This document shows positions 23,951 through 39,599 of a stretch of 39,599 bases of DNA, in pieces. The position numbers and the translations under genes were made by a program. This stretch comes from Actinomycetota bacterium (GTDB lineage: Bacteria; Actinomycetota; CADDZG01; WHSQ01), in contig JBOGWW010000295.1 in the NCBI GenBank assembly GCA_050693655.1, positions 1-39,599 on the forward strand. Direction: 5' to 3'. Each line of letters begins with the position of its first letter. Position 1 is the stretch's first letter. The notes under the pieces were generated by a model. That model made no database searches and had not been told where the DNA came from. It was given only the letters and a program-made list of their open reading frames with translations.

Positions 23951-25372
23951 CTAGTTCTGCGGCCCTCCGAAGTCGGGCTGGCCCATGACCGAGGAGGCGT
24001 CCGAGCGACCCTCTTCCCAGGCCACGCGCTCGGCCACGATGCCGCCGCCCTCGGAGGTCACCGCGAGAAACGCTCCCCGACTCGACCCCAGGTCGTCGAG
24101 CGAGACCGACACCCGTAAACCGGCCGGCACCGTGATTCCCTGGAGTTGCTCCGGGCGTGCACCTTCCCCGGACCCGTTGTAGACCACCACGTCCACCGTC
24201 GCGTCCCGCGGGGTCGGATTCTGAAGGACCAGGGATTCGGTCGTGGGCCGGGTCGAAGGCGGCGCCACCAGCCAGGCGTCCGAGGCGCGCGTGGCTCCCA
24301 CCTCGGTGATACGGCCGGTCATCTGGCCGCCGTCAAACACGGTCGTGGAATCGGCCACGATGGGAACCTCGTTGTCGACCGTAACCACAGCGCTTACGCC
24401 GCCGACATTGCGTCTCCTCGCGTCCAGCCGGTTGGCGACCGCCAAACGCGTCGCGGATTGGGGCGGGACTGCGATCTCGATGAGCTTGGAGGACTGGACC
24501 GGCCCCTCGTTCGTCGACAGGGCCACCGAGACGCTGGACTCCTGCTCGTTGGGGTTCATGAGGGTGATGGTCTGCCGGGCCTGCCCGCTCACCTCGCCCG
24601 CGGGGAAGTACCACTCGGTGGCCGGAGCGGGAGCACCCAGAGAGAACTCGAGGCCCGGGGATTCACCCTCCGGATTCGTCCACAGCGCTTTCCAGGCGAT
24701 GACCCGGCCGCGCACCGAGTGCAGACGAACGGACAACAGGTCTTGGGGAATGGCGGCTCCGCTGATGGAGACGACCTCGACCTGCCCGGAGGCTACGGCG
24801 ACCTCGGAGAGCTGCGCCGATGTCTCCTCGCCCTCCTCGGTCAAGAAGTTGACCCGGACCACCGCCTCGTCGGGGAACGGGTTCGCCACGACGAGCCGGT
24901 AGTCCGTTGCTACCGAACTGTCGCCGCTCGGGAAGTACCAGTTCTGCGAGGAGTCCGTGGCGCAGGTACCGGCCCCCACTCCCTCGACGGTCCCCGAACG
25001 TCCGACTCGAGCGTTCACGAAATGAGAGGTGGCAGCCGCGACCGGTGAGCCAAAGCCCTCGGCCACCACCGGTTCGGGGGTCTCGATCGGGCGCGTGACC
25101 GTGGATCCGGCGGACAGCTCCAGAGGCTCAGGCTCCGGGGGTTCGAGTTCGACCGGGACCACATCCGGCGACGCGGTCGCGAGCGAGACATTCGCCCCCG
25201 ACCCCTCCTCGAGGATTCGAGAGGAACAGAACTGTGCCCGTTCGAAAAACGGGGGGCCCGGTTGCTCGGCCGAGGAGGGCTCCGCGTCATCCGTCGCGAG
25301 ATCGAACCCGATACCGGCGAGCATGAGCACGGCCACCGCGATGAGCAGCGTCAGGTCACGCATGCGCTCCAT
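23951..25372 (-). CDS. Membrane-anchored extracytoplasmic protein of unknown function (DUF5719-like), coupled to the GT2 gene
   Basis: An N-terminal TM helix (LTLLIAVAVLMLAGIG) is followed by a long beta-rich region with repeated WYFP(S/A)G motifs. Its ATG at 25372 overlaps the TGA of the upstream GT2 gene. The family assignment is from memory. Confidence 0.55.
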   Translation of the reverse strand: MERMRDLTLLIAVAVLMLAGIGFDLATDDAEPSSAEQPGPPFFERAQFCSSRILEEGSGANVSLATASPDVVPVELEPPEPEPLELSAGSTVTRPIETPEPVVAEGFGSPVAAATSHFVNARVGRSGTVEGVGAGTCATDSSQNWYFPSGDSSVATDYRLVVANPFPDEAVVRVNFLTEEGEETSAQLSEVAVASGQVEVVSISGAAIPQDLLSVRLHSVRGRVIAWKALWTNPEGESPGLEFSLGAPAPATEWYFPAGEVSGQARQTITLMNPNEQESSVSVALSTNEGPVQSSKLIEIAVPPQSATRLAVANRLDARRRNVGGVSAVVTVDNEVPIVADSTTVFDGGQMTGRITEVGATRASDAWLVAPPSTRPTTESLVLQNPTPRDATVDVVVYNGSGEGARPEQLQGITVPAGLRVSVSLDDLGSSRGAFLAVTSEGGGIVAERVAWEEGRSDASSVMGQPDFGGPQN

Positions 25373-28300
25373 CAGGAAGGCGGCCTCCTCTTTTCGCTCC
25401 GGCGGCTCGGGAAGGCGGCTCCGATCATGAACAACCACAGCAGGGGCAGCACCACCAGCCACGCGTAGTCGATCAGGGAGCGGGAGAACTCAAGTTCGAG
25501 CGGCGCCTCATCACCGCCGGGAAGATCGAACGCGTTGCCCCACCCGGACTCGGTGCGTTCCAACTCGTCCCCGCCGCTCGTCGCGCTCCAGTTCTCGTCG
25601 CGCGTCTCGGCCAAGAAGACAACTCCCGGTACCGAGACCTGAGAAGCGCGGTATTTCGAGGGATCCTCGCGCGCCAGGATCGCGTGCTCGGAGGGAGGTT
25701 CGCCCGAAGCAATCGTGGGATCCTCCTCCGAGATCGCGGCCACGTAGGGAGGGAGCTCCTCGTACACCGCCGCGCGCTCCAGGGCCGCGGCGTTCTCGAA
25801 CACGAGGAAGTCGCTCTCGCTGCGGATCAGAGCGAGGTCACGCTGCGCTCGCCAGGGACGCGTCTCGGAATCGCGGTCGACGATGATGAATCGAATGTTG
25901 AAGCTTCCCAAGAGGCTTCCCGCGCGGTCGGTCTCTCCCGACTGGATCGAGCCGACGACCTCCTCCAGTCGTTGAGCGCCGTCGCCGGTGTTGCCCGCGA
26001 AGAGATCGTCGAGAGCGGGACCATTCGGGTCCGTCAGGAAACCGGCCCAGTGGGGACGAGCCGAAGTGGCGGCCCCGCCGGTCCAATCCCGCCCCACCCA
26101 AAGCGCCCGGAAGTCCCCTTGGCGCGCAGAGTCCGCCCGCAACAGCGCGGTGATCTGATCCGTCTCGGTCGCCTCGGGCGCGCTGCCATCGCCCATTCCG
26201 GGGGCCCAATCCCCTCCCGCCAGCGTCGGGGCCAGGCCGGTGACGGCCAGAAACAGCGCGGCGGCGAGTCCGGCAACGGTGACCCCCTGCACGAGTCCGA
26301 ACCCTCGTCGGGGGAGGTCGAGACGAAAGGCGCCGACCGCAAGACCGGCCAGGCCCGAGAACGAGAGAGAGATCAGAACGCCCATCTCCGTCGGCGAAGC
26401 GACCGCCGGGGCCAGGATCCCCGACGCGGTGGCCGTCACGAGAAAACCCATGCCCACGATCAACGCCCAGAGTGCGATCGCCAGCCGGCGCCGTTGCCCG
26501 GCTCCGGTGGCAACGGCCACCACTCCCAGAACGGGAAGAGCAAGCCCCAGCAGCACGGGACCCTCCGGAGTCTGGCCGAGCAACACGCTGATCATCCCGT
26601 GGCCGTTGAAATGAGTGACGAAATCCGCGTAGGGCGCCCCCGCATTCAGGACCGACAGCGCGCCACCCTCGCTCGCCCAGCTCAGACTCCAGGGCAAGAG
26701 CAGCGCCCAGCCGAGCGCCAGACCGATAAGGCATCCGCCGAGCCCCTTCAGTTCGGTCCCGGCCCTCCCCACCACCGTGCGAATGGCGGTCAGAAGCAGG
26801 GCCGCGAGGAGGTAGAGGAACAGAGAGCCGGGCACGAACGCGGCCGATAGGGCCGCGAACAGCCCGAGGGTCGCCACCTCGCGTCCCGCCGACCAGCGCG
26901 CGGGTCGAACCCAACCGACCAGCCGCAGAATCGACAACAGCACGTAGGGGGCAGCCGCACCGAAGACGAGAGATCCCAGCGCGCCGGCGCGCAGGCCCGC
27001 GTAGCCGACGGCTCCGAGCACGTACACGACACCCGTCGTGAAGCGAGCGGGACGATCCACCAGTTCGGAAACGAGCCGCGTGGCTCCGAAAAAGGCGGCG
27101 GCGGCCAGCAGCAGGAGTAGGAGCTTCTGGGCGAAGCCCGCCGCCCCGAAACTGACAAACTGCACCACACCCAGTACCAGGAACGACGTCGGGGCCGGTC
27201 CGGGACCACCCAAACCGGCGTCCTGCCAGGGCGAGGCCCACTGGCGCCACATCGATGTCGCGCGTCCGGGAAAGGGCAAGAGCTCGCCGAACGTCGCGGC
27301 CGGCGCCCAAAAGAGGTCTCTGAAGCCCAGAACGACAAACACGAGGATCGCGATGACCGCGGCGATCTGCCAGCCCCTGATGCGTGCCGTGGCGGCGCGC
27401 GCTTGAGTCGTCCGGCGAGACACGATGTCTGCCCTGCGGCCCCAGGTCTCCTCCAGGCGTTCTGCTTGGTCGAGCGCGTACGCCCCCAAACGCGCCGGGA
27501 GGCGCACCATGAGCCGCGTCAGTTCGGTGTCGGTAACCTTTCGAGTGCTTTGCACCCGCCTGCGCTCGCCCAGAGTCTGCGGGAATCGCACGAGATTCCA
27601 CGTCAGCGCGCGCCCGAGATTCCCGACCTCACGTGGTTCCCGGAGTATGAGAAAGCTCAACATCTCGCCGATGGTCAGCAACACGAACAAGGGGATCAGC
27701 GTCAGGAGACGCAGCCCCGACGCGTTCTTGGTGATCGTGTGGAGACGGTTGCGACGGATGAAGTAGCGCGGGGGCCCGAAGCGCGTCGAGCGCTGCCCCC
27801 TCGCCATCGAGATTGCGTGTCGCGCCCTCGCTGCGGGTTCCAGCCTCACCGTGTACCCCAATAAGCGCGCGCGCCAGCAGAGATCCAGGTCTTCGCTGTA
27901 CGCGCCGAGATGCGCATCAAAACCGCGCATGCGCTTGAAGACGTCGTGGCGGATGAGCATGACCGTACTGGTTACGTAGAAGACCTCGGTCGAACGGTCG
28001 TGCTGACCGAGGTCGATCTCTCCTTGTTCCAAGCCCTTGTAGGGGTAGCCGAAACGGTCGATCGCCATGCCGACCTCTTCGAGGATGGTCGGATCGCTCC
28101 AGGAGACGATCTTGGGTCCCACCACCGCCGTCCTCTCGTCGTCCCGCAGCCGTTCGGCCATTCTCGCCACGGATTGAGGCGTGAGCGCGGCATCATCGTG
28201 GACGAAGAGCAGATAGTCGGCGTCGGTCCTGACACGAGAGAGCGCCCAGTTGATCGCAGCGCCGTACCCAAGGGGGCGCGGGGTGCGCAGATAACCCCAT

Positions 28301-28554
28301 CTCCTTCGACGAACGTGACGCTTGACGATTCGCTTGAGACGCGGTTCCTCGCGCGGGCGCGACGATGCATCGTCCACGACCAGGATGTCGAGGTTCTCGT
28401 AGTCTTGGTTTGCAAGCGCGACGAGGGAGTCCCGAAGCCATCGCCGGCCGTCGTGCGTCACCACGATGGCCAGAACGCTCGGCTGTTCGGGAGGTGCACT
28501 CACCGCTTCCGGGTCCCAGGACCCGCGCGGCACCGAAGTCGTCTCAGTACTCAT
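25372..28554 (-). CDS. Family-2 glycosyltransferase fused to a large polytopic membrane domain (1060 aa)
   Basis: GT2 motifs are present at the N-terminus (VLAIVVTHDG, ILVVDDASS, FVHDDA, EDLDLCWR). These are followed by about 700 aa of hydrophobic segments. Confidence 0.85.
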   Translation of the reverse strand: MSTETTSVPRGSWDPEAVSAPPEQPSVLAIVVTHDGRRWLRDSLVALANQDYENLDILVVDDASSRPREEPRLKRIVKRHVRRRRWGYLRTPRPLGYGAAINWALSRVRTDADYLLFVHDDAALTPQSVARMAERLRDDERTAVVGPKIVSWSDPTILEEVGMAIDRFGYPYKGLEQGEIDLGQHDRSTEVFYVTSTVMLIRHDVFKRMRGFDAHLGAYSEDLDLCWRARLLGYTVRLEPAARARHAISMARGQRSTRFGPPRYFIRRNRLHTITKNASGLRLLTLIPLFVLLTIGEMLSFLILREPREVGNLGRALTWNLVRFPQTLGERRRVQSTRKVTDTELTRLMVRLPARLGAYALDQAERLEETWGRRADIVSRRTTQARAATARIRGWQIAAVIAILVFVVLGFRDLFWAPAATFGELLPFPGRATSMWRQWASPWQDAGLGGPGPAPTSFLVLGVVQFVSFGAAGFAQKLLLLLLAAAAFFGATRLVSELVDRPARFTTGVVYVLGAVGYAGLRAGALGSLVFGAAAPYVLLSILRLVGWVRPARWSAGREVATLGLFAALSAAFVPGSLFLYLLAALLLTAIRTVVGRAGTELKGLGGCLIGLALGWALLLPWSLSWASEGGALSVLNAGAPYADFVTHFNGHGMISVLLGQTPEGPVLLGLALPVLGVVAVATGAGQRRRLAIALWALIVGMGFLVTATASGILAPAVASPTEMGVLISLSFSGLAGLAVGAFRLDLPRRGFGLVQGVTVAGLAAALFLAVTGLAPTLAGGDWAPGMGDGSAPEATETDQITALLRADSARQGDFRALWVGRDWTGGAATSARPHWAGFLTDPNGPALDDLFAGNTGDGAQRLEEVVGSIQSGETDRAGSLLGSFNIRFIIVDRDSETRPWRAQRDLALIRSESDFLVFENAAALERAAVYEELPPYVAAISEEDPTIASGEPPSEHAILAREDPSKYRASQVSVPGVVFLAETRDENWSATSGGDELERTESGWGNAFDLPGGDEAPLELEFSRSLIDYAWLVVLPLLWLFMIGAAFPSRRSEKRRPPS

Positions 28555-28587: not shown

Positions 28588-30984
28588 TCAAGCCGTAACG
28601 GTCTCGTACAGGGTAGTCCTACGGCGCGGCACCCGGCCAATGGAGTGGATGAGTTCAACCATCGCATCCGGAGTAAGTTCCTGACCGTGACTGGCGCCGG
28701 CGGCGCGCGAGATGTTCTCGTTCATCAGAGTGCCACCGAGATCATTCGCCCCCGACTGCAGCGCAAGCTTGGACCCTTCGACGCCCATCTTCACCCAGGA
28801 GACCTGGATGTTGTCGATGGCCCCCTGCAGCGCGATGCGCGCGACCGCATGCATCTTCAGGGCCTCGTCGAACGTTGGCCCGCGCCGGGCCTTTCCCCTC
28901 AGGTAGATGGGTGCCGCCATGTGCACGAAAGGCAACGGGACGAACTCGAACAAGCCCGCGCCGCCCTCGGCCGATATCTCATCGTGCAGCGCTCGAACGA
29001 CCACGAGATGACGAGCCCAATTGCGGGGCCCCTCGACCGTTCCGAACATGATGGTGGCGTTGCTACGAAGCCCGAGCCGGTGAGCGATCCGGTGCACCTC
29101 GCACCATTCTTCGGTGGTGACCTTGTCGGGACAGATGATGGCTCGGATGTCGTCGTCGAGCACCTCGGCGGCCGTCCCCGGCAGCGTCTTCAATCCCGCG
29201 TCGCGCAGCGCGACCAAGAACTCCTCGATGGACAGTCCCGAGGCGTGAGCGCCTTGGGCCACTTCGAGCGCGGTGAAGGCGTGGACGTGCATCTCGGGGA
29301 TGGAGTCTTTGACCGCGCGCAGGTACTCCAGATAGTTCTCCGCGGTGAAGCTGTGATGGATACCGCCTTGCATGCAGACCTCTGTTGCGCCCAGCTCCCA
29401 GGCCTCGCGCGCACGAACCGCGACCTCTTCGGGCGTCAGAAGATAGGGCTCACCCCTCAGGTTCAGCGACTTGGGGCCCTTGGAGAAGGCGCAGAATCCA
29501 CACTTGAAGTAGCACATGTTCGTGTAGTTGATGTTGCGATTGATGACGAAGGTGATCTCGTCGCCGACGGTCTCGCGGCGCAGCCGGTCGGCCACCGCGT
29601 AAAGTCGTTCTGCCTCCGCGCTGCTGGCGGTGAAGAGGAGCGCTATCTCTTCTTCGCTCAAGCGCGCTCCCGCCTCCGCCTTGTCCAGCGTTTCCTTCAA
29701 TTGCGGACGCACGGCGCGTCCCGGAACGCGGTAGGCCCCGGCCAGAGCTTGCTCGACCGCGATCGCCGCCTCGTGTGGTGGCTCGTGGTCGGCCCCCGAA
29801 TACCACTCGTCCGTGCGTGGAAAACCCTCTGCGTCGGTCGCGTCGAGGACCCGGGCGCGCAGCTCCGGGTGAACCCAGCGACCGAGCGCAGCCGGCGAGG
29901 AGCAGTAGGACGGATACAGCGCGAGTCTCTTCGTCAGTGAGTAGCCGCGCGCCCCGGTCACCTCACTCAGCTCCTGCAGCTGGGGCCATGGTGCTTCGGG
30001 ATTGACGTGATCGATCGTGACCGGTGAGACGCCACCCCAGTCATTGATACCGGCGTCGATGTACGTGCCGTACTCGCGCGGAGTGAGGTTCGGAGGAGCC
30101 TGCAGCGCGACGTCGGGAGGCAGGATCAAGCGGGCCAGCGCGATGGTCGCCGAGATTTCCCGTACCTGCGGTTCGGGCGCGCCGGCCATCAAGGTCTCGC
30201 GCTTCGCTCGGAAGTTCTGAACGATTACTTCCTGGATGTGCCCGTGCCGTTCGTGCGACTCCCTGATGGCGAGGAGCGCGTCGATGCGTTCGGCGGGCGA
30301 CTCTCCGATGCCGATCAGAATCCCGGTTGTGAACGGCACGTCGGCGTCACCCGCCGCCTCCAGCGTCGCCAGGCGAACCGCCGGCTTCTTGTCCGGTGCT
30401 CCGAAATGAGCCATGCCCCGCTTCAAGAGCCGTTCCGAAGTAGTCTCGAGCATCATTCCCTGACTGACGCTGACCTCTTTGAGCGAGCGCGCCTCCTCGT
30501 GGGTCAGCGTGCCCGGATTCGTGTGCGGCAGCAGAGAGGTGTGCTCCAGCACCGCCCTGCAGGCCTCCGCCAGGTACTCGATGGTCGAGTCGTAGCCCAG
30601 GGCGTGGAGCTCGTCGCGCGCTCGGCGCCACTTGCGTTCGGGCTTCTCTCCGAGCGTGAAAAGCGCCTCGCGGCATCCCGCCGCGTCCCCCCGCCGGGCG
30701 ATTGCGAGCACCTCGTCGATCGTGAGAAACGCCCCTTCACCGGGGACCGGAGGGTGGGCGAAGGTGCAGTAGCCGCACGCGTCCCTGCACAGCTTGGTGA
30801 GCGGGATGAAGACCTTGGGCGAGTAGGTGATTCTCGGCCCGGTGCTCGCATCCCGGAGCGCGCCGGCAGCGGCCATAACGGGGCGCGGATCGTTCACCGC
30901 CAGGGCGGCGAGGCGGCGCGCCTCGGTGTCGTCGAGCCGCCGCCCGCGCGCGGCGGAGCTCGCCAGACTCATCAGTTCGCTCAT
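28588..30984 (-). CDS. fbiC: FO synthase (7,8-didemethyl-8-hydroxy-5-deazariboflavin synthase), fused CofG+CofH
   Basis: It contains two radical-SAM cysteine motifs, CRDACGYCTF and CYFKCGFCAF. The length of 798 aa is typical of FbiC. Confidence 0.95.
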   Translation of the reverse strand: MSELMSLASSAARGRRLDDTEARRLAALAVNDPRPVMAAAGALRDASTGPRITYSPKVFIPLTKLCRDACGYCTFAHPPVPGEGAFLTIDEVLAIARRGDAAGCREALFTLGEKPERKWRRARDELHALGYDSTIEYLAEACRAVLEHTSLLPHTNPGTLTHEEARSLKEVSVSQGMMLETTSERLLKRGMAHFGAPDKKPAVRLATLEAAGDADVPFTTGILIGIGESPAERIDALLAIRESHERHGHIQEVIVQNFRAKRETLMAGAPEPQVREISATIALARLILPPDVALQAPPNLTPREYGTYIDAGINDWGGVSPVTIDHVNPEAPWPQLQELSEVTGARGYSLTKRLALYPSYCSSPAALGRWVHPELRARVLDATDAEGFPRTDEWYSGADHEPPHEAAIAVEQALAGAYRVPGRAVRPQLKETLDKAEAGARLSEEEIALLFTASSAEAERLYAVADRLRRETVGDEITFVINRNINYTNMCYFKCGFCAFSKGPKSLNLRGEPYLLTPEEVAVRAREAWELGATEVCMQGGIHHSFTAENYLEYLRAVKDSIPEMHVHAFTALEVAQGAHASGLSIEEFLVALRDAGLKTLPGTAAEVLDDDIRAIICPDKVTTEEWCEVHRIAHRLGLRSNATIMFGTVEGPRNWARHLVVVRALHDEISAEGGAGLFEFVPLPFVHMAAPIYLRGKARRGPTFDEALKMHAVARIALQGAIDNIQVSWVKMGVEGSKLALQSGANDLGGTLMNENISRAAGASHGQELTPDAMVELIHSIGRVPRRRTTLYETVTA

Positions 30985-31070
30985 GGCCTGGCAGGCTATC
31001 AGCGGGGAGGAAGCACTCGATGTGGGCCCCTCGCTGCCGGTTTGGTCTTTGCCTCCCCTATGCTGCAGCC

Positions 31071-31991
31071 ATGAAGGTCACCGCCCTCGCGGGAGGGGTC
31101 GGAGGAGCCAAGCTGCTTGTGGGCCTGCAGCGCCGGCTCGGCCCCTCTCTCACCGCCGTCGTCAACACCGCCGACGACGCCCGCGTCTACGGCGTGCACG
31201 TCAGCCCGGACGTCGATATCTGCATGTACTGGCTCGCGGGCCTCGCCGACACGGCGAAGGGCTGGGGCATCGAGGGCGACACTTTCTCCGTGGTCGAGGG
31301 GATGAGGAGACTCGGGCTGGACGCGTGGTTCAACCTCGGCGACCGTGACTTCGCGACATGCCTCCACCGCACCGCGCTGCTCGGAGCGGGCAAGAGCCTG
31401 AGCGAGGTGACGGCCGACCTCGCCCGCAGGCTGGGGGTGAAGGCGAAGCTGCTCCCGATGTCCGACGACGAGGTGCGAACCAAGATCGTCACCACCGACG
31501 GGCGGACCCTCGATTTTCAGGAGTACTTCGTCAAGGAGGCCACGGCCCCCGAGGTGGCCGAAGTCCTGTTCGCCGGCATGTCGGAGGCAACCCCTGCGCC
31601 GGGGGTCCTGGATGCCTTGGTCGAATCGGACGCCGTGGTCCTCTGCCCGTCGAATCCCATGGTGTCCATCGGACCCATACTGAGTCTCGCCGGAGTGCGT
31701 GACGCTCTTCGCTCGCATCCTCGGGTCGTAGCCGTCTCCCCCATCGTCAAGGGTGCGGCCCTGAAGGGACCCGCCGACAGGATGCTCCGCTCCCTGGGAG
31801 CCGATGCGAGTGCGGCAGGGGTCGCCGAACTCTACAAGGACTTCGCCGACGTTTTCGTTGTCGACGCTTCCGACGCGGACCAGGTGGCCCGGATCGAGTA
31901 CTCCGGCCTGAGGGCCTTCGGTCGCGACACCATCATGAGCGATCACGACGCGGCCGAGCGCCTGGCAGGCGAGTTGCTCGAACTCACGTGA
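31071..31991 (+). CDS. fbiA: 2-phospho-L-lactate (or EPPG) transferase, CofD/FbiA
   Basis: The N-terminus is MKVTALAGGVGGAKLL, with VNTADD and CPSNP motifs. It is divergent from fbiC and overlaps the cofE start by 4 nt. Confidence 0.93.
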   Translation: MKVTALAGGVGGAKLLVGLQRRLGPSLTAVVNTADDARVYGVHVSPDVDICMYWLAGLADTAKGWGIEGDTFSVVEGMRRLGLDAWFNLGDRDFATCLHRTALLGAGKSLSEVTADLARRLGVKAKLLPMSDDEVRTKIVTTDGRTLDFQEYFVKEATAPEVAEVLFAGMSEATPAPGVLDALVESDAVVLCPSNPMVSIGPILSLAGVRDALRSHPRVVAVSPIVKGAALKGPADRMLRSLGADASAAGVAELYKDFADVFVVDASDADQVARIEYSGLRAFGRDTIMSDHDAAERLAGELLELT

Positions 31992-32674
31992 CCGAGATCC
32001 GCATCACGGCGGTTCGGGGCATCCCCGAGGTGCAGCCGGGCGACGACTTGGGTGCGCTGATAGTCGCGGCGACGGGCCGCGGCGGCTTCCTGGACGACGA
32101 CGTCTTGGTAGTGGCTCAGAAGGTGGTCTCCAAGGCCGAAGGACGAGTCGTGCCCGGGAGCGACCGGCGCGCCGCTGCACGGGCCGAATCGGTGCACGTG
32201 CTGCGCCGCCGGGGAGAGATGCTGATCTCCGAGACCCGGCACGGTTTCGTATGCGCCAACGCAGGGGTCGATGCCAGTAACGTCGAGGGGGACAACGTCG
32301 TCCTGCTTCCACTCGACCCGGATCTGTCGGCCCGCCGTCTCCGCGCCCGGCTCAAGCATCTGGTGGGGGCCGACGTCTCGGTCATCGTGAGCGACACCTT
32401 CGGGCGCGCCTGGCGGCTCGGTCAGACGAACTCGGCAATTGGGGTTGCCGGGCTCGAACCCTTCATCGACTACCGCGGCACGATGGATTCACAGGGTCGG
32501 GACCTGTCCGCCACCCGGATCTGCGTCGCAGACGAGCTGGCGGGAGCCGCCGAGATGGTGATGGGCAAGACGACGGGCATCTGCGCGGCGATCGTCCGGG
32601 GAGCGCCGGTCATCAGGGGCCGCGGGGCCGCGACCGAGATCGTCCGGCCCCCCTCCGAGGACATGTTCCGCTAA
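31988..32674 (+). CDS. cofE: Coenzyme F420-0:L-glutamate ligase (CofE domain only, 228 aa)
   Basis: The motifs VVAQKVVSKAEGR, GFVCANAGVDASN and SDTFGRAWRLGQTNSAIG are present. The start codon is GTG. There is no C-terminal nitroreductase-like domain. Confidence 0.9.
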   Translation: MTEIRITAVRGIPEVQPGDDLGALIVAATGRGGFLDDDVLVVAQKVVSKAEGRVVPGSDRRAAARAESVHVLRRRGEMLISETRHGFVCANAGVDASNVEGDNVVLLPLDPDLSARRLRARLKHLVGADVSVIVSDTFGRAWRLGQTNSAIGVAGLEPFIDYRGTMDSQGRDLSATRICVADELAGAAEMVMGKTTGICAAIVRGAPVIRGRGAATEIVRPPSEDMFR

Positions 32675-33537: not shown

Positions 33538-34683
33538 TCACTTCGCTCTGGTCCCATGAGTCCACTCCGTCCAAGCGTAGTTCTTTCCCTTGCCGGTGTT
33601 CTTGAACTGACGCCATGGGCGCCGGTCACCGTACCAGAACACAGCGAGCGCGGGCACGTGATCTGAGTCGGCCGAACCTCCCGTTCCCCACCAGCCGCCG
33701 AAGCCCTGGTGCCACCTCCACAGGCGGTCGAAGGCCCTTCGTAGTGCGGAATCAGCCCAACGAAGAACACCGTATCCGCGCCGTCTCAGCAGCTCAGCCT
33801 GCATGGTGACGCCCTGCAAGCTTCCCCATACATAGTTGGTCTTGCGAGGTGGCCATGAAGCGGGCCCACCTCGAGCCAGCTCTGTGGCAAGAACCCCACC
33901 GATGCTGCGCTTAGCTCCGTCGATCCTCTTCGTGCACCCTTTGGGGTTGATTCCGATTTGCCGCTTGGTGCAGAGCCATCCACGGTCACCGTTGAACGAG
34001 AACCCCCTGTACGCGGATGAAACTCCCAACCAGCCCCTGAACACCCTCGCGGCTCGCTTTAGTTCTCTCTTGTCGCCGAGGTAGATGGCTGCGGCGATCC
34101 GGCTGCCGCCCGACATCGTGCCGTGGTTCGTCAGTATCTCCTGGTGTCTCTGGGCTAGGGTCCTGTCGTCGACCTTCATCCTCAGAACGGACCCGAGCCA
34201 TTCCCGCCACCTGGCTTCTCGGGCGGATTCGTAGGCCCGGAAATTGATGAGATCCGCCGCGATTATGTAGCTGGACAGGTTCCGGCCCAGCGAGGTGTTC
34301 GCCGCACCTTCCTCAGTGCCGATGGTCGCCATCAGAGCGTCAGCCACGCGGGCGCGATAACGCTCGGCCCTCCTTCCTGGATATGTCCGAGCGAAAACGA
34401 GAGCTCCCGCCAGCGTGTAGACATCGTGATGCGAATCGTTATCGGCGACGTCAGCCCGCCCCCAGTTGTCGCTCGCAGCGGACTTCATCCGTTTCCACCC
34501 AGGGCCTCGCTTCGGTATCGACCGAAGCTGGGCTCTACCAATCCACATCCCGTAACGGACGGGTTTAGCTGATACCCGAGCGCCCCTGGGGGTCATCGAC
34601 GGTGAACGGTCGGGCACCCCCGGTAGCAAGACGGCCATCAAGATCGTGGCGAGCACCACGGCGCGCAAGACACTGATTCGCAT
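33538..34683 (-). CDS. Secreted alginate-lyase-like (alpha/alpha-toroid polysaccharide lyase-like) protein, paralogue 1
   Basis: It has a signal peptide (MRISVLRAVVLATILMAVLLPG). By eye it is about 55-65% identical to the N-domain of the next gene. The TNHGTMSGGSRIAAAIYLGD stretch resembles the NNHSYW...region of alginate lyases. The ATG at 34683 is preceded by GGGGGAAG. Confidence 0.5.
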   Translation of the reverse strand: MRISVLRAVVLATILMAVLLPGVPDRSPSMTPRGARVSAKPVRYGMWIGRAQLRSIPKRGPGWKRMKSAASDNWGRADVADNDSHHDVYTLAGALVFARTYPGRRAERYRARVADALMATIGTEEGAANTSLGRNLSSYIIAADLINFRAYESAREARWREWLGSVLRMKVDDRTLAQRHQEILTNHGTMSGGSRIAAAIYLGDKRELKRAARVFRGWLGVSSAYRGFSFNGDRGWLCTKRQIGINPKGCTKRIDGAKRSIGGVLATELARGGPASWPPRKTNYVWGSLQGVTMQAELLRRRGYGVLRWADSALRRAFDRLWRWHQGFGGWWGTGGSADSDHVPALAVFWYGDRRPWRQFKNTGKGKNYAWTEWTHGTRAK

Positions 34684-34769
34684 AAGGCTTCCCCCAAAGC
34701 TCTCGCTTGCATTAAGCATCTGTCCTGAGCAAAGCGAGCAGCCTAGCAGGAGTAGCGGATGGATTAAAA

Positions 34770-34793
34770 CCCGATAGAGCGGGCCTTTTCGGG
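34770..34793 (-). terminator. Probable intrinsic terminator after paralogue 2
   Basis: The minus-strand RNA folds as CCCGA-N14-UCGGG (or CCCG-CUCUAU-CGGG) and is followed by UUUUAAUCC. It begins about 10 nt after the stop at 34803. Confidence 0.45.
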
Positions 34794-34802
34794 AAAAAAG
34801 GA

Positions 34803-36623
34803 CTATCCGGCCGGCTCTAGGGCGAGCACGTGGGCGATACTGGTTGATCTCTTTCGGAGCCGTGCGCCGCGCTTGCCCGCAGCACCCGCGGCCTCTATGA
34901 CCTGATCGGCGGCCGCGCTGCCCACTCTGTATTTTCCACTTGCGTTGAGCACCCGGAATCGTCTTGTCATCGTCCACGGAGTGGAAGCGATCGTCCTCTT
35001 CGGAACCCCTCCGAGGAATACCAGCACGGAGTCCGGGGTGGTGGTCTTGATAGAGGGCGCCCTCATCCTTCTCGAGCGATCGCTCACTCTGCCCCCCTGG
35101 GCGACGATGGGATCGTGGGGGTTCACGCCACGATAGGCGACCATGCCGCCGGCGGCGGGATGACTCCCGCGGAGGCCGAAGGCGTAGGTGGACGGCTCGT
35201 CGTGGCTAACCACCCGGTAGTACGTCGCCTTGAAGCTGACGTTGCCGTTGTCGTCGGAGCGAACCAACTTCCAACCACCGGGACGGGTGATCCTGGGGTT
35301 ACCGCGCACATCGAGCGTCGCGATCATCACATCTCCCGGCTCTAGTCCGGCCGGCACGGCCAGCTCGAGCGAATCCGATCGCCGCCCGTTGTCGCCACTG
35401 GTGGCTCCGACCGGAGCGATGCCGGATCCCGGCGGACGGTCGGGGTCCGGTTGGGGTTCGGGACCCGGCTCGGGTTCCGGTAGGGGTGGTGGAACGGTTC
35501 CAGAGGGCGCGCGCATGCCGTGGGTCCACTCGGTCCATCCGAAGTTCTTTCCGGCCCCGGCAAGCTCGGGTTGCCACCACGAGCGCTTGTGTCCGTACCA
35601 GAACGCAACGAGAGCGGGAAGGTGAGCCGAATCCACCGACGCACCATCCGCCCACCAACCGCCGAAATCTTGCTCCCACATCCACAGCCGGTCGAAGGCG
35701 CGCAACAGGGCCTCGTCCGACCACTGGAGCACAGGATAGCCCCGCCGCCTCAACAACTCGGCCTGCATGGTCGCGCCCTGGAGTCCGCCGCCGACGTAGT
35801 TGGTCGTGCCCGGAGGCCACTGTGCGGCACCCGACCTGATCTGCTCGGCGGGGAGAACCCCATCGATGTCCCGCTGTGCTCCGGCCACAAGGCGGGCACA
35901 GCCGGCTGGATTGATTCCGCGCAGCTTTGATGGGTCACAGAACCAGTCCTTGTCGCCGCCGTAGGTAAACCCGTCGTAGGCGGAGGAGTCTCCCAGCCAT
36001 CCCTGGAACACCCTGGCCGCCCGGCTCAGCTCTGCGCTGTCCCCCAGATAGATCGCCGCGGCGATACGCGAGCCACCGGACATCGTGCCGTGGTTGGTGA
36101 GACGGCGCTCATGCCTCTCCGCCAGCGTCATGCCGCCGACTTTCCTCTCGAGCAAGGCATCCAGCCACTGCCGCCACTGTGCCTCTTCGCTGGGGGCAAA
36201 ACCGGGAAAGTTGATGAGGTCCGCGGCGATCACATACGAGGAGAGGTTTCGTCCCAGGGAGGTGTCGGCAGGCTCGTTGTGCTCCGTTCCGATCACCGAC
36301 ATCAGAGCGTCGACGACCTTGACCCGATAGTGCTCTGCTTCGGGATGCGGGTAAAGCCGAGCAAAAACGAGCGCACCGGCGAGCGTGGACACGTCGTGCT
36401 TGGAGTTATTGTCCGAGATGTTCGCCGGCCCCCAGTTGGAGTCTGCGGCCGATCTCATCTGCGACCAACCCGGCCCCGACATGGGGATGGAGTCGAGTTC
36501 CGCCTTGCTTATCCAGATTCCCTTGTAGATGGGCTTGACGGCGGCGCGCGCTACTCCCGGGAGCGACGCCACAACGAGTGCCGACACCAGTGCGCCCGCG
36601 AGAAGCCGGCGGGTGAGTCGCAT
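34803..36623 (-). CDS. Secreted alginate-lyase-like protein, paralogue 2, with a Pro-rich linker and an uncharacterised ~190-aa C-terminal module
   Basis: It has a twin-arginine-like signal (MRLTRRLLAGALVSALVVASLPGVARA), a lyase-like domain, the linker PPPLPEPEPGPEPQPDPDRPP, and a C-terminal module homologous to the C-terminus of the ORF at 38643. AGGAG lies 5 nt upstream of the ATG at 36623. Confidence 0.55.
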   Translation of the reverse strand: MRLTRRLLAGALVSALVVASLPGVARAAVKPIYKGIWISKAELDSIPMSGPGWSQMRSAADSNWGPANISDNNSKHDVSTLAGALVFARLYPHPEAEHYRVKVVDALMSVIGTEHNEPADTSLGRNLSSYVIAADLINFPGFAPSEEAQWRQWLDALLERKVGGMTLAERHERRLTNHGTMSGGSRIAAAIYLGDSAELSRAARVFQGWLGDSSAYDGFTYGGDKDWFCDPSKLRGINPAGCARLVAGAQRDIDGVLPAEQIRSGAAQWPPGTTNYVGGGLQGATMQAELLRRRGYPVLQWSDEALLRAFDRLWMWEQDFGGWWADGASVDSAHLPALVAFWYGHKRSWWQPELAGAGKNFGWTEWTHGMRAPSGTVPPPLPEPEPGPEPQPDPDRPPGSGIAPVGATSGDNGRRSDSLELAVPAGLEPGDVMIATLDVRGNPRITRPGGWKLVRSDDNGNVSFKATYYRVVSHDEPSTYAFGLRGSHPAAGGMVAYRGVNPHDPIVAQGGRVSDRSRRMRAPSIKTTTPDSVLVFLGGVPKRTIASTPWTMTRRFRVLNASGKYRVGSAAADQVIEAAGAAGKRGARLRKRSTSIAHVLALEPAG

Positions 36624-36689
36624 TACCACTCCTTAGACCGGTCATCCGAGAAGCGGCTCGACCTCGAGCGCGGTCCACTTCACAACCGG

Positions 36690-36781
36690 TCACCTAGTCC
36701 ACGGCACCTAGCACCAGTAGTCCGGTTGGGTATGGATTGCCGACCGAGCTAGTCCCCAGGTGCTAGATCTCAACTAGGTGA
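36690..36781. promoter_or_regulatory. CTAG-rich nested inverted repeats upstream of paralogue 2, a candidate operator or leader structure
   Basis: The outer inverted repeat is tcacctagt (36690-98) / actaggtga (36773-81). The inner one is cctagcacc / ggtgctag. There are five CTAG tetramers within 84 nt, CACCTAG occurs twice and CTAGTCC occurs twice. Confidence 0.4.
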
Positions 36782-36838
36782 GACATCGGCGAACGCCCCA
36801 GCGGGCTTGAGCGGAAAACCGATTAGAAGCCAAAACAC

Positions 36839-36870
36839 AAGAGGGGGCAGCCGTCGGGCCACCCCCTCTT
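36839..36870 (-). terminator. Intrinsic terminator after the propeller-protein gene
   Basis: A 9-bp stem (aagaggggg / ccccctctt) encloses a 14-nt loop. On the minus strand it is followed by GUGUUUUGGCUU. It lies 20 nt after the TAA at 36891. Confidence 0.75.
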
Positions 36871-36890
36871 GCCTTAAGGTCCCCCAAGGA

Positions 36891-38462
36891 TTACCGGCGG
36901 AACCTCTTTGTCGACGACCGGCCGCCGAGGCATCTGATCGTCCCGGCTCCATCCTGGATCATTAGTCGTTTTACGACCGCGTAGTAGCGCCCTCTGCCGC
37001 CCCGCTTGTGGGGGGCCGACCATTTCCCGTTGCCGCGGCTGGTCGTGCGGGCGACGACCCTGTCTTTCCCCCGTCGTACCTTCTTGATTACCAGCTTCCG
37101 ACCTGAGATACAGCGTGCGTCGTCGGACTTCACCTTTCCGAGGAAGCGGTGCGGCCGGGCACGATGCTTCAGATTGGTTTTCGACTCGGCGGTGTTGGCG
37201 GGCGGCCCTGAGCCGCCCAGCCGGTTCCACCAGTAGTGGGAGCCGCCTGAGGCCATGACCACGATGCCGGAGGCGGCGGTCGCGTTGGCCTTCATGGAGG
37301 TCGCGTTGTTGATCGCCTCCCCGTTCCCTCCCCGGATGAAGGGCGTCGAATGCGTCGGGAACGAAATGTCATCGAGCGAGGTCGCCTTGTATTCGATCCC
37401 CTCGGCGAGATGCCCCTCGTCGATGGTCATGAACACGTAGGCCTTGTTCTCGCTCGGGTCGACGTGCAGCACTGCGATGGGGCGGGTCTTGTCCCCCTCC
37501 GAGCGGAACGTCACGGGATGGGGCTCCCAGGACCCCGATGGGGACCGCACGAGGAGGCGGATGATCGGCTGCTCATCGGCCGTGTGGCTGGTCTTGACGA
37601 CCGAGAAGATCTGATCTTGTGCGGTCTTCATGTTGATGTGGTCGTTGGCCTCCAGCGCACCACTCAGAGCCGTCTCCTCGCTCCACGAGGTGTCGGGAGC
37701 GCCATCACGGTGCACCGCGAAGGAGATCTTGTCGGCGCTCTGGTTGGACCACATCACTCCGATGGCGGGCCCGGTGTTGTCCGAGAAAGAGACGACTGCC
37801 GAGATGTCGTCAACGAGCACGCCGGTTGCCCCCAACACCGGTATCACGAACGGGACTCCCCACTGGGTGTGGTCGCTGCCCTCGGTCCGGGCGACGTATA
37901 TCTCGCCTCCCTGCTCGTAGCTCACCCAGAGGTTGTCGAGGCTGTCGCGCGCCAGGGTCAGGGCCTCCGGCCTCGTGCCCGGTACGGTGACCGGGACATC
38001 GAAATCGGTGTCGGGTGAGTAGCTTCCGCTCGCGTAGGTGAACCGCATCAGCTTGTTATCGCCCGCGTCACCGTTGGCGCGCGCCAGGATGTACAGCTTG
38101 TTTCCGAGCGACAGGACGTCCTCTTTGATCGAGGGTCTCGAGTCGATGACCACTCCGGTGCTGACCCAAGTCTCGTCGGCGAGTCGATGGATGGTGTGGG
38201 CCCCCTCCAGCTCCGGGTCGAGCATCGCGGCCCACCACTCGCCGTCGTGGAACCACAGCTTGGACTCCGGCTTCTGCCCGGTGATCGCCCGACCCGAGGG
38301 CTCCGCGTCGAAGCCACCGTAGGCATGCGATTTGAAGCCGACCTGCGAGCTCTGCTGAGCAACTGCTTGCGGGGGCACGATCTGAAGCATCGTGGCCAAC
38401 ATCACAAGTCCTAGAAGCGCAGCACCCCAACTGCGACGCCTTCCCCAACCTCGCTCCGCCAT
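36891..38462 (-). CDS. Secreted BNR/sialidase-like beta-propeller protein with a basic C-terminal beta-sandwich-like tail
   Basis: It has a twin-arginine-like signal (RGWGRRRSWGAALLGLVMLA...AVAQQ) and degenerate Asp-box-like motifs (GSDHTQWG, APDTSWS, SPSGSWEP). The C-terminus (CISGRKLVIKKV...GNGKWSA...GRYYAVV...C) resembles carboxypeptidase-regulatory-type domains. Confidence 0.5.
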   Translation of the reverse strand: MAERGWGRRRSWGAALLGLVMLATMLQIVPPQAVAQQSSQVGFKSHAYGGFDAEPSGRAITGQKPESKLWFHDGEWWAAMLDPELEGAHTIHRLADETWVSTGVVIDSRPSIKEDVLSLGNKLYILARANGDAGDNKLMRFTYASGSYSPDTDFDVPVTVPGTRPEALTLARDSLDNLWVSYEQGGEIYVARTEGSDHTQWGVPFVIPVLGATGVLVDDISAVVSFSDNTGPAIGVMWSNQSADKISFAVHRDGAPDTSWSEETALSGALEANDHINMKTAQDQIFSVVKTSHTADEQPIIRLLVRSPSGSWEPHPVTFRSEGDKTRPIAVLHVDPSENKAYVFMTIDEGHLAEGIEYKATSLDDISFPTHSTPFIRGGNGEAINNATSMKANATAASGIVVMASGGSHYWWNRLGGSGPPANTAESKTNLKHRARPHRFLGKVKSDDARCISGRKLVIKKVRRGKDRVVARTTSRGNGKWSAPHKRGGRGRYYAVVKRLMIQDGAGTIRCLGGRSSTKRFRR

Positions 38463-38642
38463 GCCGATTCTCCCCTTCGCCGGGCTGCGATCAGCTCGCA
38501 GGCAACCCCTCTGACGAGAGTCATTCTCGGTTGATAAGGGGGTATTGCACCAGGCACTTCGGTGGATTTCCGGCTAGGTAGTTTGCGCAAATCGCCACCC
38601 GCTCTCTTTGGAGAGGGCCCAGGAGCCGACGCTGAGGATCCA

Positions 38643-39599
38643 CTAGGGCCCGGGCTTGAGCGCCACCAGGTGAGCGATGCTGGGGGCGTCCTTGGCGGCG
38701 GTGGCGACCCGCTCACCGGTGGCCCCGGTGGCGGCGCGCGCCTCGGTGGCGCCGGCCGAGGTGATCTTGGACGAGCCCGTGGAGGCGAGGTCCCAGCGCT
38801 CGGTCATGCCCGAGGGCGGTGCGATCTGGGTGGCGCCCCGGATGGCGAAGGAGCCCACCAGCATGGTGTCGGGCACCGTGGTCGTGATGGAGGGCGCGGT
38901 GATGAGCGTCGACGAGGCGTTGACCTGGCCGCCGGAGGCGTCGACCGGGGCTCCGGTGTCGACCCCGGAGAAGGCCGCGATGCCGCCCGCCGCGCCGCGC
39001 TCGACGGGGAAGGTCCAGGTGTAGGAGGCCGGCTCCGAGGAGCCCGCGCTGCGGTAGTAGGTCTCGAGCTTCAGCGCCGAGCCGTTGACGTCGGAGCGGA
39101 TCAGGGTCCAGCCCACGGGCGGCGTCACCTGGGGCTTGCCGCGCACGTCGATCGAGGCGAGCATGACGTCGCCCGCCGCCACCCCGGCGGGCCGGTCGAT
39201 CGAAAGCGTGGTCGCGGTCGCGTTGGCCGCGGAGCTGGCCGCCACGAAGCTGATGTCGGTTGGGGCGCCGGGCTCGGTCACGGTGATCGTCACGGTCGCG
39301 GGGTTGGAGTCGAGCTCCCCGTCGGACGCCTTGAAGCTGAAGCTGTCGGTCCCGGTGAAGCCCGAGGCCGGGGTGTAGGTCACCTCGGCGGTGTCCGAGT
39401 TGGGGCTCTCGGTGCTGCAGGCCCTGTCGGTGAGCGCAGACAGGGTCCCGCTGGCCGGCGAGGTGGTGGTCGAGAAATCGAGCTCGCAGGTCTCGGGATC
39501 GGTGGCCGACAGGGTCACGGTCACGGCGGTGTCGGCCGGGGTCGTGGCGCTCGCGTCGGCCGCCGTGGGAGCGCTGTTGGGGGGAGGCTCTGAGCTGCC
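38643..39599 (-). CDS. C-terminal part of a large secreted Ig-like/cadherin-like repeat protein ending in the same uncharacterised ~190-aa module; runs off the right edge
   Basis: The frame is open to the window edge (GSSEPPPNSAPTAADASATTPADTAVTVTLSATDPE...). The repeat signature is EVTYTPASGFTGTDSFSFKASDGELDSNPATVTITV. The last 190 aa align almost without gaps to the C-terminus of the ORF at 34803. Confidence 0.7.
   Translation of the reverse strand, partial: GSSEPPPNSAPTAADASATTPADTAVTVTLSATDPETCELDFSTTTSPASGTLSALTDRACSTESPNSDTAEVTYTPASGFTGTDSFSFKASDGELDSNPATVTITVTEPGAPTDISFVAASSAANATATTLSIDRPAGVAAGDVMLASIDVRGKPQVTPPVGWTLIRSDVNGSALKLETYYRSAGSSEPASYTWTFPVERGAAGGIAAFSGVDTGAPVDASGGQVNASSTLITAPSITTTVPDTMLVGSFAIRGATQIAPPSGMTERWDLASTGSSKITSAGATEARAATGATGERVATAAKDAPSIAHLVALKPGP

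Follow-up and report, generated by a model that had tools for sequence, protein, structure and literature searches.

Several described systems come close to the element considered here. An alginate-binding function has been established by experiment for the module CBM96 (PMC9971899), exposed tail and baseplate domains of a mycobacteriophage have been found experimentally to bind host glycans (PMC13033339), and MshQ has been proposed from modelling as the tip-located counterpart of the adhesin PilY1 (PMC13533445). Carbohydrate-binding modules (CBMs) of siphophage tails and baseplates, such as BppU-CBM of mycobacteriophage Douge and BppA/BppL of Tuc2009, are likewise borne on tail proteins and bind host glycans (PMC13033339, PMC13252515). 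The element in question is a module of ~203 amino acids (aa) found at the C-terminus of two different secreted, enzyme-like proteins encoded in a 39,599-nucleotide stretch, referred to below as the window, from an Actinomycetota bacterium (GenBank assembly GCA_050693655.1, contig JBOGWW010000295.1, positions 1 to 39,599, forward strand). This module resembles a CBM or a lectin in role, yet it belongs to no Pfam or NCBIfam family, nor to CBM96 or the LamG/ConA fold; among the named families compared, its only true homologues are phage protein clusters that are themselves uncharacterised. It is apparently an undescribed family, with a fold unseen in the Protein Data Bank (PDB), within the familiar class of accessory binding modules. 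We estimate at roughly 0.6 the probability that it is a non-catalytic glycan- or surface-binding module tethering its partner to a polymer.

Both copies lie on the minus strand. Copy B closes a 608-aa open reading frame (ORF) at 34803-36629, named here lyase-like paralogue 2, and copy A closes an ORF that stops at 38643 and leaves the window at 39599, with 318 residues visible. A preliminary description of this DNA had reported that the last 190 and 191 aa of the two proteins align almost without gaps. Indeed, BLASTP of window:38643-39215(-) against window:34803-35378(-) gave 78/187 identities (42%), 60% positives and one gap, with E=1e-40 under compositional adjustment, and every landmark listed at that time is present in the alignment (GDVM, DVRG, GW, RSD.NG, YYR, EP..Y, AAGG, GV, APSI.TT.PD and SIAH..AL.P). 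A similarity due merely to Ala/Gly/Thr bias had been named as a possible objection. The BLOSUM62 local score of the pair is 353, against 36 ± 6 for 1000 shuffles of one partner (maximum 66, z ~50); given this z value and the composition-adjusted E-value, the match therefore reflects homology and a low-complexity artefact is ruled out. The shared C-terminal module thus stands, but its ~190-aa boundary has to be moved. The family profile and the second AlphaFold model place the true start ~15 residues further upstream, the added part being the first beta-strand ('ISFVAASSA' in one copy, 'IAPVGATSG' in the other). The start coordinate of 38643 given earlier takes in the stop codon and the final two residues. 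The corrected limits of the ~203-aa domain are given in Table 1. The Pro-rich linker that was said to precede the module in paralogue 2 is present as APSGTVPPPLPEPEPGPEPQPDPDRPPGSG (aa 374-402), and lyase-like paralogue 1 indeed lacks the module: it gave no match to the family hidden Markov model (HMM), nor did the 523-aa protein encoded in the same cluster.

AlphaFold2 models, built with a 100-sequence alignment, are very confident for both copies. Copy A (aa 128-317) was predicted with a mean local confidence score (pLDDT) of 98.0, a predicted template-modelling score (pTM) of 0.93 and 11 strands, and copy B (last 210 aa of the protein) with pLDDT 96.7, pTM 0.92 and 12 strands, including the extra N-terminal one. 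Both models are all-beta, with 12 strands when the N-terminal strand is counted, two of them very long. On these predictions the segment is an autonomous ~203-residue, 12-strand all-beta domain, in agreement with the earlier view of an independently folding appended domain.

The module also matches no named domain, as had been suspected. No match was obtained for either copy in Pfam-A (E<=10), NCBIfam (E<=1) or PADLOC, and searches of PDB sequences with phmmer and a profile hmmsearch returned just kinesin noise at E ~0.8. No Pfam family covers the module in the 58+8 multi-copy relatives scanned, and module-only homologues carry '-' in a precomputed Pfam annotation whose release is newer than the local hmmscan library and includes PF28xxx entries. 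Foldseek comparison of two independent models with 350,542 PDB chains gave 0 matches at E<=1e-3. The Pfam-A hmmscan and the PDB Foldseek searches also exclude, indirectly, any CBM family for which there is a Pfam model or a solved structure. The arrangement expected of a CBM in CAZy, a discrete fold contiguous with a carbohydrate-active enzyme, is nevertheless seen in paralogue 2, where the Pro-rich linker joins the module to an Alginate_lyase-superfamily domain. No description of the domain was found in the open-access literature, an absence of evidence confined to open-access texts. Against BFVD, a collection of predicted viral structures, Foldseek gave 59 matches at E<=1e-3, with template-modelling scores (TM) up to 0.89 and root-mean-square deviations (rmsd) of ~2-3 Å. 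These are mostly uncharacterised Caudoviricetes proteins, but 'minor tail proteins' of Mycobacterium phages (Hawkeye, Gaia, Shauna1) are also among them, together with a protein of 806 aa from a Microbacterium phage that carries the annotation glycerophosphodiester phosphodiesterase.

The family is very large. A word-indexed protein search gave 99 relatives, mostly from soil metagenomes and from metagenome-assembled genomes (MAGs) of Actinomycetota and Chloroflexota, with Big_9, He_PIG, Big_5, fn3 and PKD as partner domains; this search missed window paralogue 2 (42% identical, no shared 5-mer) and all proteins >331 aa. When 1.84 billion cluster representatives were searched exhaustively with a profile, 4,904 proteins were retrieved at E<=1e-30, 23,699 at E<=1e-10 and 40,225 at E<=1e-3, the last count being perhaps somewhat inflated by the ~60 weakly conserved flank positions held in the profile. 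A single peptide pattern, derived from 16 close sequences, recovered 163 relatives in GTDB species genomes, nearly all of them MAGs, from Chloroflexota, Actinomycetota, Beta- and Gammaproteobacteria, Rokubacteria, Acidobacteriota, Myxococcota, Verrucomicrobiota, Patescibacteria and others, and a tblastn search of plasmids returned no relatives. Pfam partners in 58 representatives comprise fn3, Big_9/cadherin-like, Big_5, PKD, Metallophos, RGI_lyase, GH16 and GSDH, as well as Kelch/galactose-oxidase-like (glyoxal/galactose-oxidase-like), Calx-beta, DMFA2_C and RHS domains. Partner-specific subtypes, for example a lyase-type clade, were considered and rejected, as copies do not cluster by partner. 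The window lyase copy is 32-34% identical to the lyase copies of Limnocylindrales, and the other window copy 51-56% identical to p523-type copies, named after the 523-aa protein. Two 'stand-alone' module proteins, P0002 and P0056, overlap the preceding gene call (L006 4285-6475; L007 7001-8576) and seem to be the C-terminal parts of longer proteins that a frameshift or the gene caller has divided, so that the number of stand-alone occurrences is probably set too high.

Each of the best 150 representatives carries 2-6 copies, and successive copies are separated by a median of 5 aa. A copy lies at the C-terminal end in 64 of them and inside the first 80 residues in 80, and internal and tandem copies are common. 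The module is thus a self-contained ~203-aa unit that occurs at any position in a protein and is often arrayed, and the idea that it might always be C-terminal does not hold. These statistics bear directly on one of the three roles first envisaged, which were binding, anchoring and sorting. A C-terminal secretion or sorting signal, comparable to the C-terminal domain of the type IX secretion system, a sortase signal or PEP-CTERM, would be in keeping with the extreme C-terminal position of both window copies and with the 64/150 top representatives that end with a copy. However, N-terminal, internal and tandem copies (up to 6) contradict it, phage virion proteins carry the module, 203 aa is the size of a folded domain, and the window copies end in …SIAHLVALKPGP and …SIAHVLALEPAG, without LPXTG, hydrophobic helix or basic tail. 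The copy positions led us to reject a sorting signal, to which we attach next to no credence, while binding or anchoring is supported by the domain context.

Conservation was assessed over 409 aligned copies. The most conserved residues other than Gly and Pro are W163 (99%), W/F194 (97%), E188 (90%), D143 (88%) and Y192 (87%). None of the polar residues is invariant: Asp is replaced by His or Asn and Glu by Asp or Ser, and E266 is Arg in the lyase copy. Conserved aromatic and acidic side chains are the usual make-up of a sugar-binding site, which may also be their role here. The same residues could be read as the active site of a small catalytic domain, that is, an undescribed all-beta glycanase, lyase or esterase using Asp143/Glu188, the more so as PHROG 13624, one of the phage clusters matched, is labelled 'hydrolase' and depolymerases are frequent on phage tail proteins. 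Against this, the module spans just 21-206 of the 651 positions of PHROG 13624, up to 6 abutting copies would be unusual for an enzyme, and the partners already hold catalytic-type domains (Alginate_lyase, GH16, Metallophos, GDPD), besides the lack of an invariant polar residue. Abutting arrays of 2-6 copies are typical of binding modules and not of catalytic domains, and we regard a catalytic function as improbable.

The most informative evidence on function comes from slot-swapping, that is, from the domains that occupy the place of the module in related proteins. The N-terminal part of the 523-aa window protein, p523_N, has no Pfam, NCBIfam or PDB relative, but it represents a widespread uncharacterised family of at least 230 homologues, including proteins of cultivated Micromonospora and Dactylosporangium. 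Its C-terminal fusions are Big_9+module, PKD+CBM96, He_PIG+LamG and SLH, and because of them p523_N is probably a glycan-active catalytic domain. When 120 p523_N homologues were examined, the C-terminal slot after the Ig-like spacer held the module in 16, CBM96 in ~19, Laminin_G_3 in 2 and SLH in 2. Since the same slot is filled by CBM96, LamG and SLH, the module is interchangeable with established binding or anchoring modules, in p523_N as well as in MshQ-like proteins.

The domains that share this slot differ from the module in kind. CBM96 (PF24517) follows a PKD or Big_9 spacer in the 523-aa orthologues, is all-beta and is linked to alginate-lyase-type enzymes, but it shows no sequence or profile kinship with the module, which is larger (~203 aa vs ~150-164). 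Laminin_G_3 (PF13385) occupies the slot in p523_N proteins (P0274) and also occurs in the N-terminal part of DUF6701/MshQ-like proteins. LamG/ConA-like lectin domains are beta-sandwiches of similar size to the module, with an adhesive or ligand-binding role, and ConA-like folds are abundant in the PDB; however, the module has no Pfam match to them at E<=10 and no PDB chain at E<=1e-3, with TM <=0.35. SLH (PF00395) is a wall anchor and would be a candidate analogue in function, should wall anchoring be the role of the module. It is a short, helical, triplicated motif, in contrast to the predicted 12-strand beta domain of the module, and the two share no sequence match.

The occurrence of SLH in the slot of two p523_N homologues gives some ground to a second alternative, self-anchoring, in which the module would bind the cell-wall polymer of its own producer and hold secreted enzymes at the surface as SLH, LysM or GW do. 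In line with this, both window copies are C-terminal on Sec-type secreted actinobacterial proteins without a sortase motif, and module-bearing phage tail proteins must recognise bacterial envelopes. However, CBM96 and LamG, which bind substrates or ligands, are far commoner in the slot than SLH; the module sits at the N-terminus of pilus proteins, pointing away from the cell; and it is carried by phyla with very different envelopes (Chloroflexota, Proteobacteria, Myxococcota, Patescibacteria). Self-anchoring is therefore unlikely in our view, although it deserves to be kept in mind. The slot data also bear on a protein-protein or structural role, in which the module would serve oligomerisation, spacing or assembly without small-ligand or glycan specificity. 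The predicted all-beta sandwich beside Ig-like spacers and the assembly of tail and pilus proteins into multimeric machines would fit such a role. Nevertheless, the module is terminal rather than bridging in most enzyme fusions, it swaps with CBM96 and LamG and not with the Ig spacers, which occur additionally, and its conserved aromatic and acidic residues are of a type expected to be exposed. We see only a slim chance for a purely structural module.

Outside cellular enzymes, the module is found on phage proteins. For the window copies, E-values of 7.4e-7 and 8.7e-5 were obtained with phrog_3329 and of ~2e-3 with phrog_13624, and their relatives P0050 and P0035 reach 8.7e-14 and 3.6e-11 in PHROGs (families 3329, 6813 and 13624 being matched). 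These clusters, mostly of unknown function, are true homologues of the module at the domain level only: they are whole-protein clusters and not a domain definition, the module region in them has no characterised function, and the window proteins are cellular secreted enzymes and not virion proteins. Relatives recovered by tblastn come from Rhodococcus, Gordonia and Mycobacterium phages, and relatives are also present on 104 IMG/VR contigs. The tape measure gene of Rhodococcus phage Jflix2 is immediately followed by that of gp21, a minor tail protein of 1331 aa with two copies of the module in tandem (E 3e-19 and 1.5e-24). Phage copies occur in minor tail proteins encoded beside the tape measure gene, at times as tandem copies. 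A metagenomic homologue (P0060) sits within a phage-like gene array, two genes away from a weak match to a 'minor tail protein'. The glycan-binding tail and baseplate domains of a mycobacteriophage (PMC13033339) offer a functional precedent but are not detectably related to the module. Moreover, the siphophage tail and baseplate CBMs bear no significant structural likeness to it (best 5e7t_G, probability 0.54, TM 0.33-0.35, E 0.44), and no PDB sequence matches the module.

A further context is that of MshQ-like type IV pilus proteins. In five of eight representatives scanned, 3-4 N-terminal copies of the module precede DUF6701, the MshQ domain; DUF6701 proteins with the module are P0101, P0106, P0116, P0124 and P0141, and the N-terminal part of such proteins holds 1-4 copies. 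Among 120 DUF6701 homologues, Laminin_G_3 was found in 15 and the module at the N-terminus in 3. The window proteins themselves gave no DUF6701 (PF20419) match in the Pfam scan and share only the module with DUF6701 proteins. Several module-only fragments bear the name 'MshQ' in JGI annotations because the module is shared with MshQ proteins, and not because they belong to MshQ. PF28243, PF28247 and PF28238 are precomputed on MshQ-like proteins, but their occurrence does not track that of the module: P0378 has the module without PF28243, and many proteins have PF28243 without the module.

Taken together, a glycan- or surface-binding module is favoured because of its residue conservation, its tandem arrays, its terminal placement on catalytic-type proteins, its phage and pilus contexts and its slot-swapping. 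We infer that the module binds, that its ligand is a glycan and that it does not itself catalyse a reaction. In the two secreted enzyme-like proteins it follows a spacer (Pro-rich linker or Big_9) at the C-terminal end. Acting in the manner of a lectin or CBM, it would bind a polymeric glycan (exopolysaccharide or cell-envelope glycopolymer), and this binding might keep the attached catalytic domain on its substrate or surface. Phages may use the same domain on tail proteins for host-surface recognition, MshQ-like pilus proteins could exploit it as well, and tandem copies would add avidity.

Some observations weigh against this interpretation. There is no structural match to a known CBM or lectin: the best PDB matches in Foldseek are Vip3 toxins, at E 4e-3 and TM ~0.25, and all matches have TM <=0.35. 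An hhalign comparison of the module alignment with that of CBM96 gave a probability of 0.2% and E 0.37. An Asp/Glu pair with aromatics is equally expected of a small glycanase, and the presence of SLH in the same slot keeps self-anchoring alive beside substrate targeting. As to candidate relatives, the weak Foldseek matches (Vip3, capsid, cupin, Fab) were taken as noise in view of TM <=0.35 and rmsd ~20 Å, and a divergent CBM96 was ruled out by the hhalign probability together with the lack of an hmmscan match.

To the specialist, an unannotated accessory domain would be unsurprising in itself. What goes beyond routine is the very large size of the family, the confident model without a PDB counterpart, and a domain common to phage receptor-binding, pilus-tip and polysaccharide-degrading proteins. 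It is possible, at somewhat less than even odds, that the window copies are the first example of a new family of carbohydrate- or surface-binding modules, with a fold unrepresented in the PDB, that serves as a common 'recognition cassette' of phage receptor-binding, MshQ-type pilus-tip and polysaccharide-degrading proteins across phyla, and that would rank among the larger domain families without a Pfam entry (>20,000 clusters at 50% identity). Glycan binding, if confirmed, would make the module a new CBM-type family and provide a function for tens of thousands of unannotated protein regions. These would include candidate receptor-binding domains of actinobacteriophage tail proteins, of interest for host-range prediction and phage engineering, and the outward-facing part of MshQ-like pilus proteins. 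Glycan binding would also tie the 523-aa domain family and the lyase-like proteins of the cluster to one polymer substrate. With its confidently predicted fold lacking a PDB counterpart, the module is an obvious candidate for structure determination and for an entry of its own in Pfam/InterPro.

The two copies belong to a cluster of four genes that extends from 33538 to 39599, all on the minus strand (Table 1).

Table 1. Positions of the module copies and of the proteins and domains around them in the window
Feature	Position	Strand	Description
Module copy A	38652..39257	-	~202 aa, predicted all-beta; C-terminus of window-end ORF, aa 115-316 of 318 visible; family HMM E=1.2e-88
Module copy B	34809..35423	-	~205 aa; C-terminus of lyase-like paralogue 2, aa 403-607 of 608; family HMM E=1e-66
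Lyase-like paralogue 2	34803..36629	-	608 aa: signal peptide, Alginate_lyase-superfamily domain, linker, module B
Pro/Glu-rich linker	35424..35510	-	joins lyase-like domain to module B; APSGTVPPPLPEPEPGPEPQPDPDRPPGSG, read from translation
Lyase-like paralogue 1	33538..34683	-	without module; Pfam Alginate_lyase E=3.1e-8
523-aa secreted protein	36891..38462	-	without module; ~420-aa N-terminal domain p523_N
Big_9 / cadherin-like Ig domain, single	39282..39578	-	directly upstream of module A; Pfam Big_9 E=2.4e-12 aa 8-106, Cadherin_5 E=3.1e-7

The Pfam Alginate_lyase match of paralogue 2 covers aa 140-221 (E=1.1e-8), and its N-terminus, MVMRLTRRLLAGALVSALVVASLPGVARA, appears by inspection to be a Sec-type signal. 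The mechanical ORF of paralogue 1 (33538-34977) shares 175 nt with the 3' end of paralogue 2; its likely start is the Met at 34683, which opens a signal-like sequence, MRISVLRAVVLATILMAVLL (MRISVLRAV…), rather than 34977.

The window-end protein had been described as an Ig-repeat protein, but it is most likely not a long Ig-repeat adhesin. A single Big_9 domain is visible, and over its 318 visible residues the protein shares 81% identity with aa 409-724 of a 727-aa relative (P0251) whose first 408 residues are p523_N (65% identical to the window 523-aa protein), followed by Big_9 (416-514) and the module (522-724). Given this match to a protein with a p523_N N-terminus, the window-end gene, of which the 5' part falls beyond the window, most probably encodes a paralogue of the 523-aa protein, arranged as p523_N, one Big_9 and the module. 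The 523-aa protein is itself 52% identical to aa 10-424 of another relative (P0122), which then continues with Big_9 and two modules. Its own tail (36891-37196, minus strand) is a strongly basic stretch of 101 residues (19 Arg, 12 Lys), in the position that a spacer and a binding module occupy in homologues. The cluster is thus made of two tandem paralogue pairs, lyase-like 1/2 and p523-type A/B, each with one member that has the module and one that lacks it, which suggests tethered and free versions of each activity.

The association of lyase, p523_N and module is conserved elsewhere. Two Limnocylindrales (Chloroflexota) MAGs (L011 and L013) encode a lyase-like orthologue that likewise ends in the module, and in them a p523_N protein with two modules is encoded within 5 kb of the lyase+module gene; p523_N adjoins the module at six further loci.

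About 5 kb from the cluster, the minus strand encodes a 1060-aa GT2 glycosyltransferase and a DUF5719 protein (23951-28554). In an Actinomycetota MAG (locus L006, 6709-10110), a 1133-aa GT2 lies directly beside a p523_N-Big_9-module gene. The neighbouring GT2 may be the synthase of the polymer on which the cluster proteins act. Between the GT2 gene and the cluster (28588-32674) lie F420 biosynthesis genes (FbiC-type radical SAM with CofH_C, CofD and the F420 ligase CofE) and DUF3105, the F420 genes being consistent with an actinobacterial origin.

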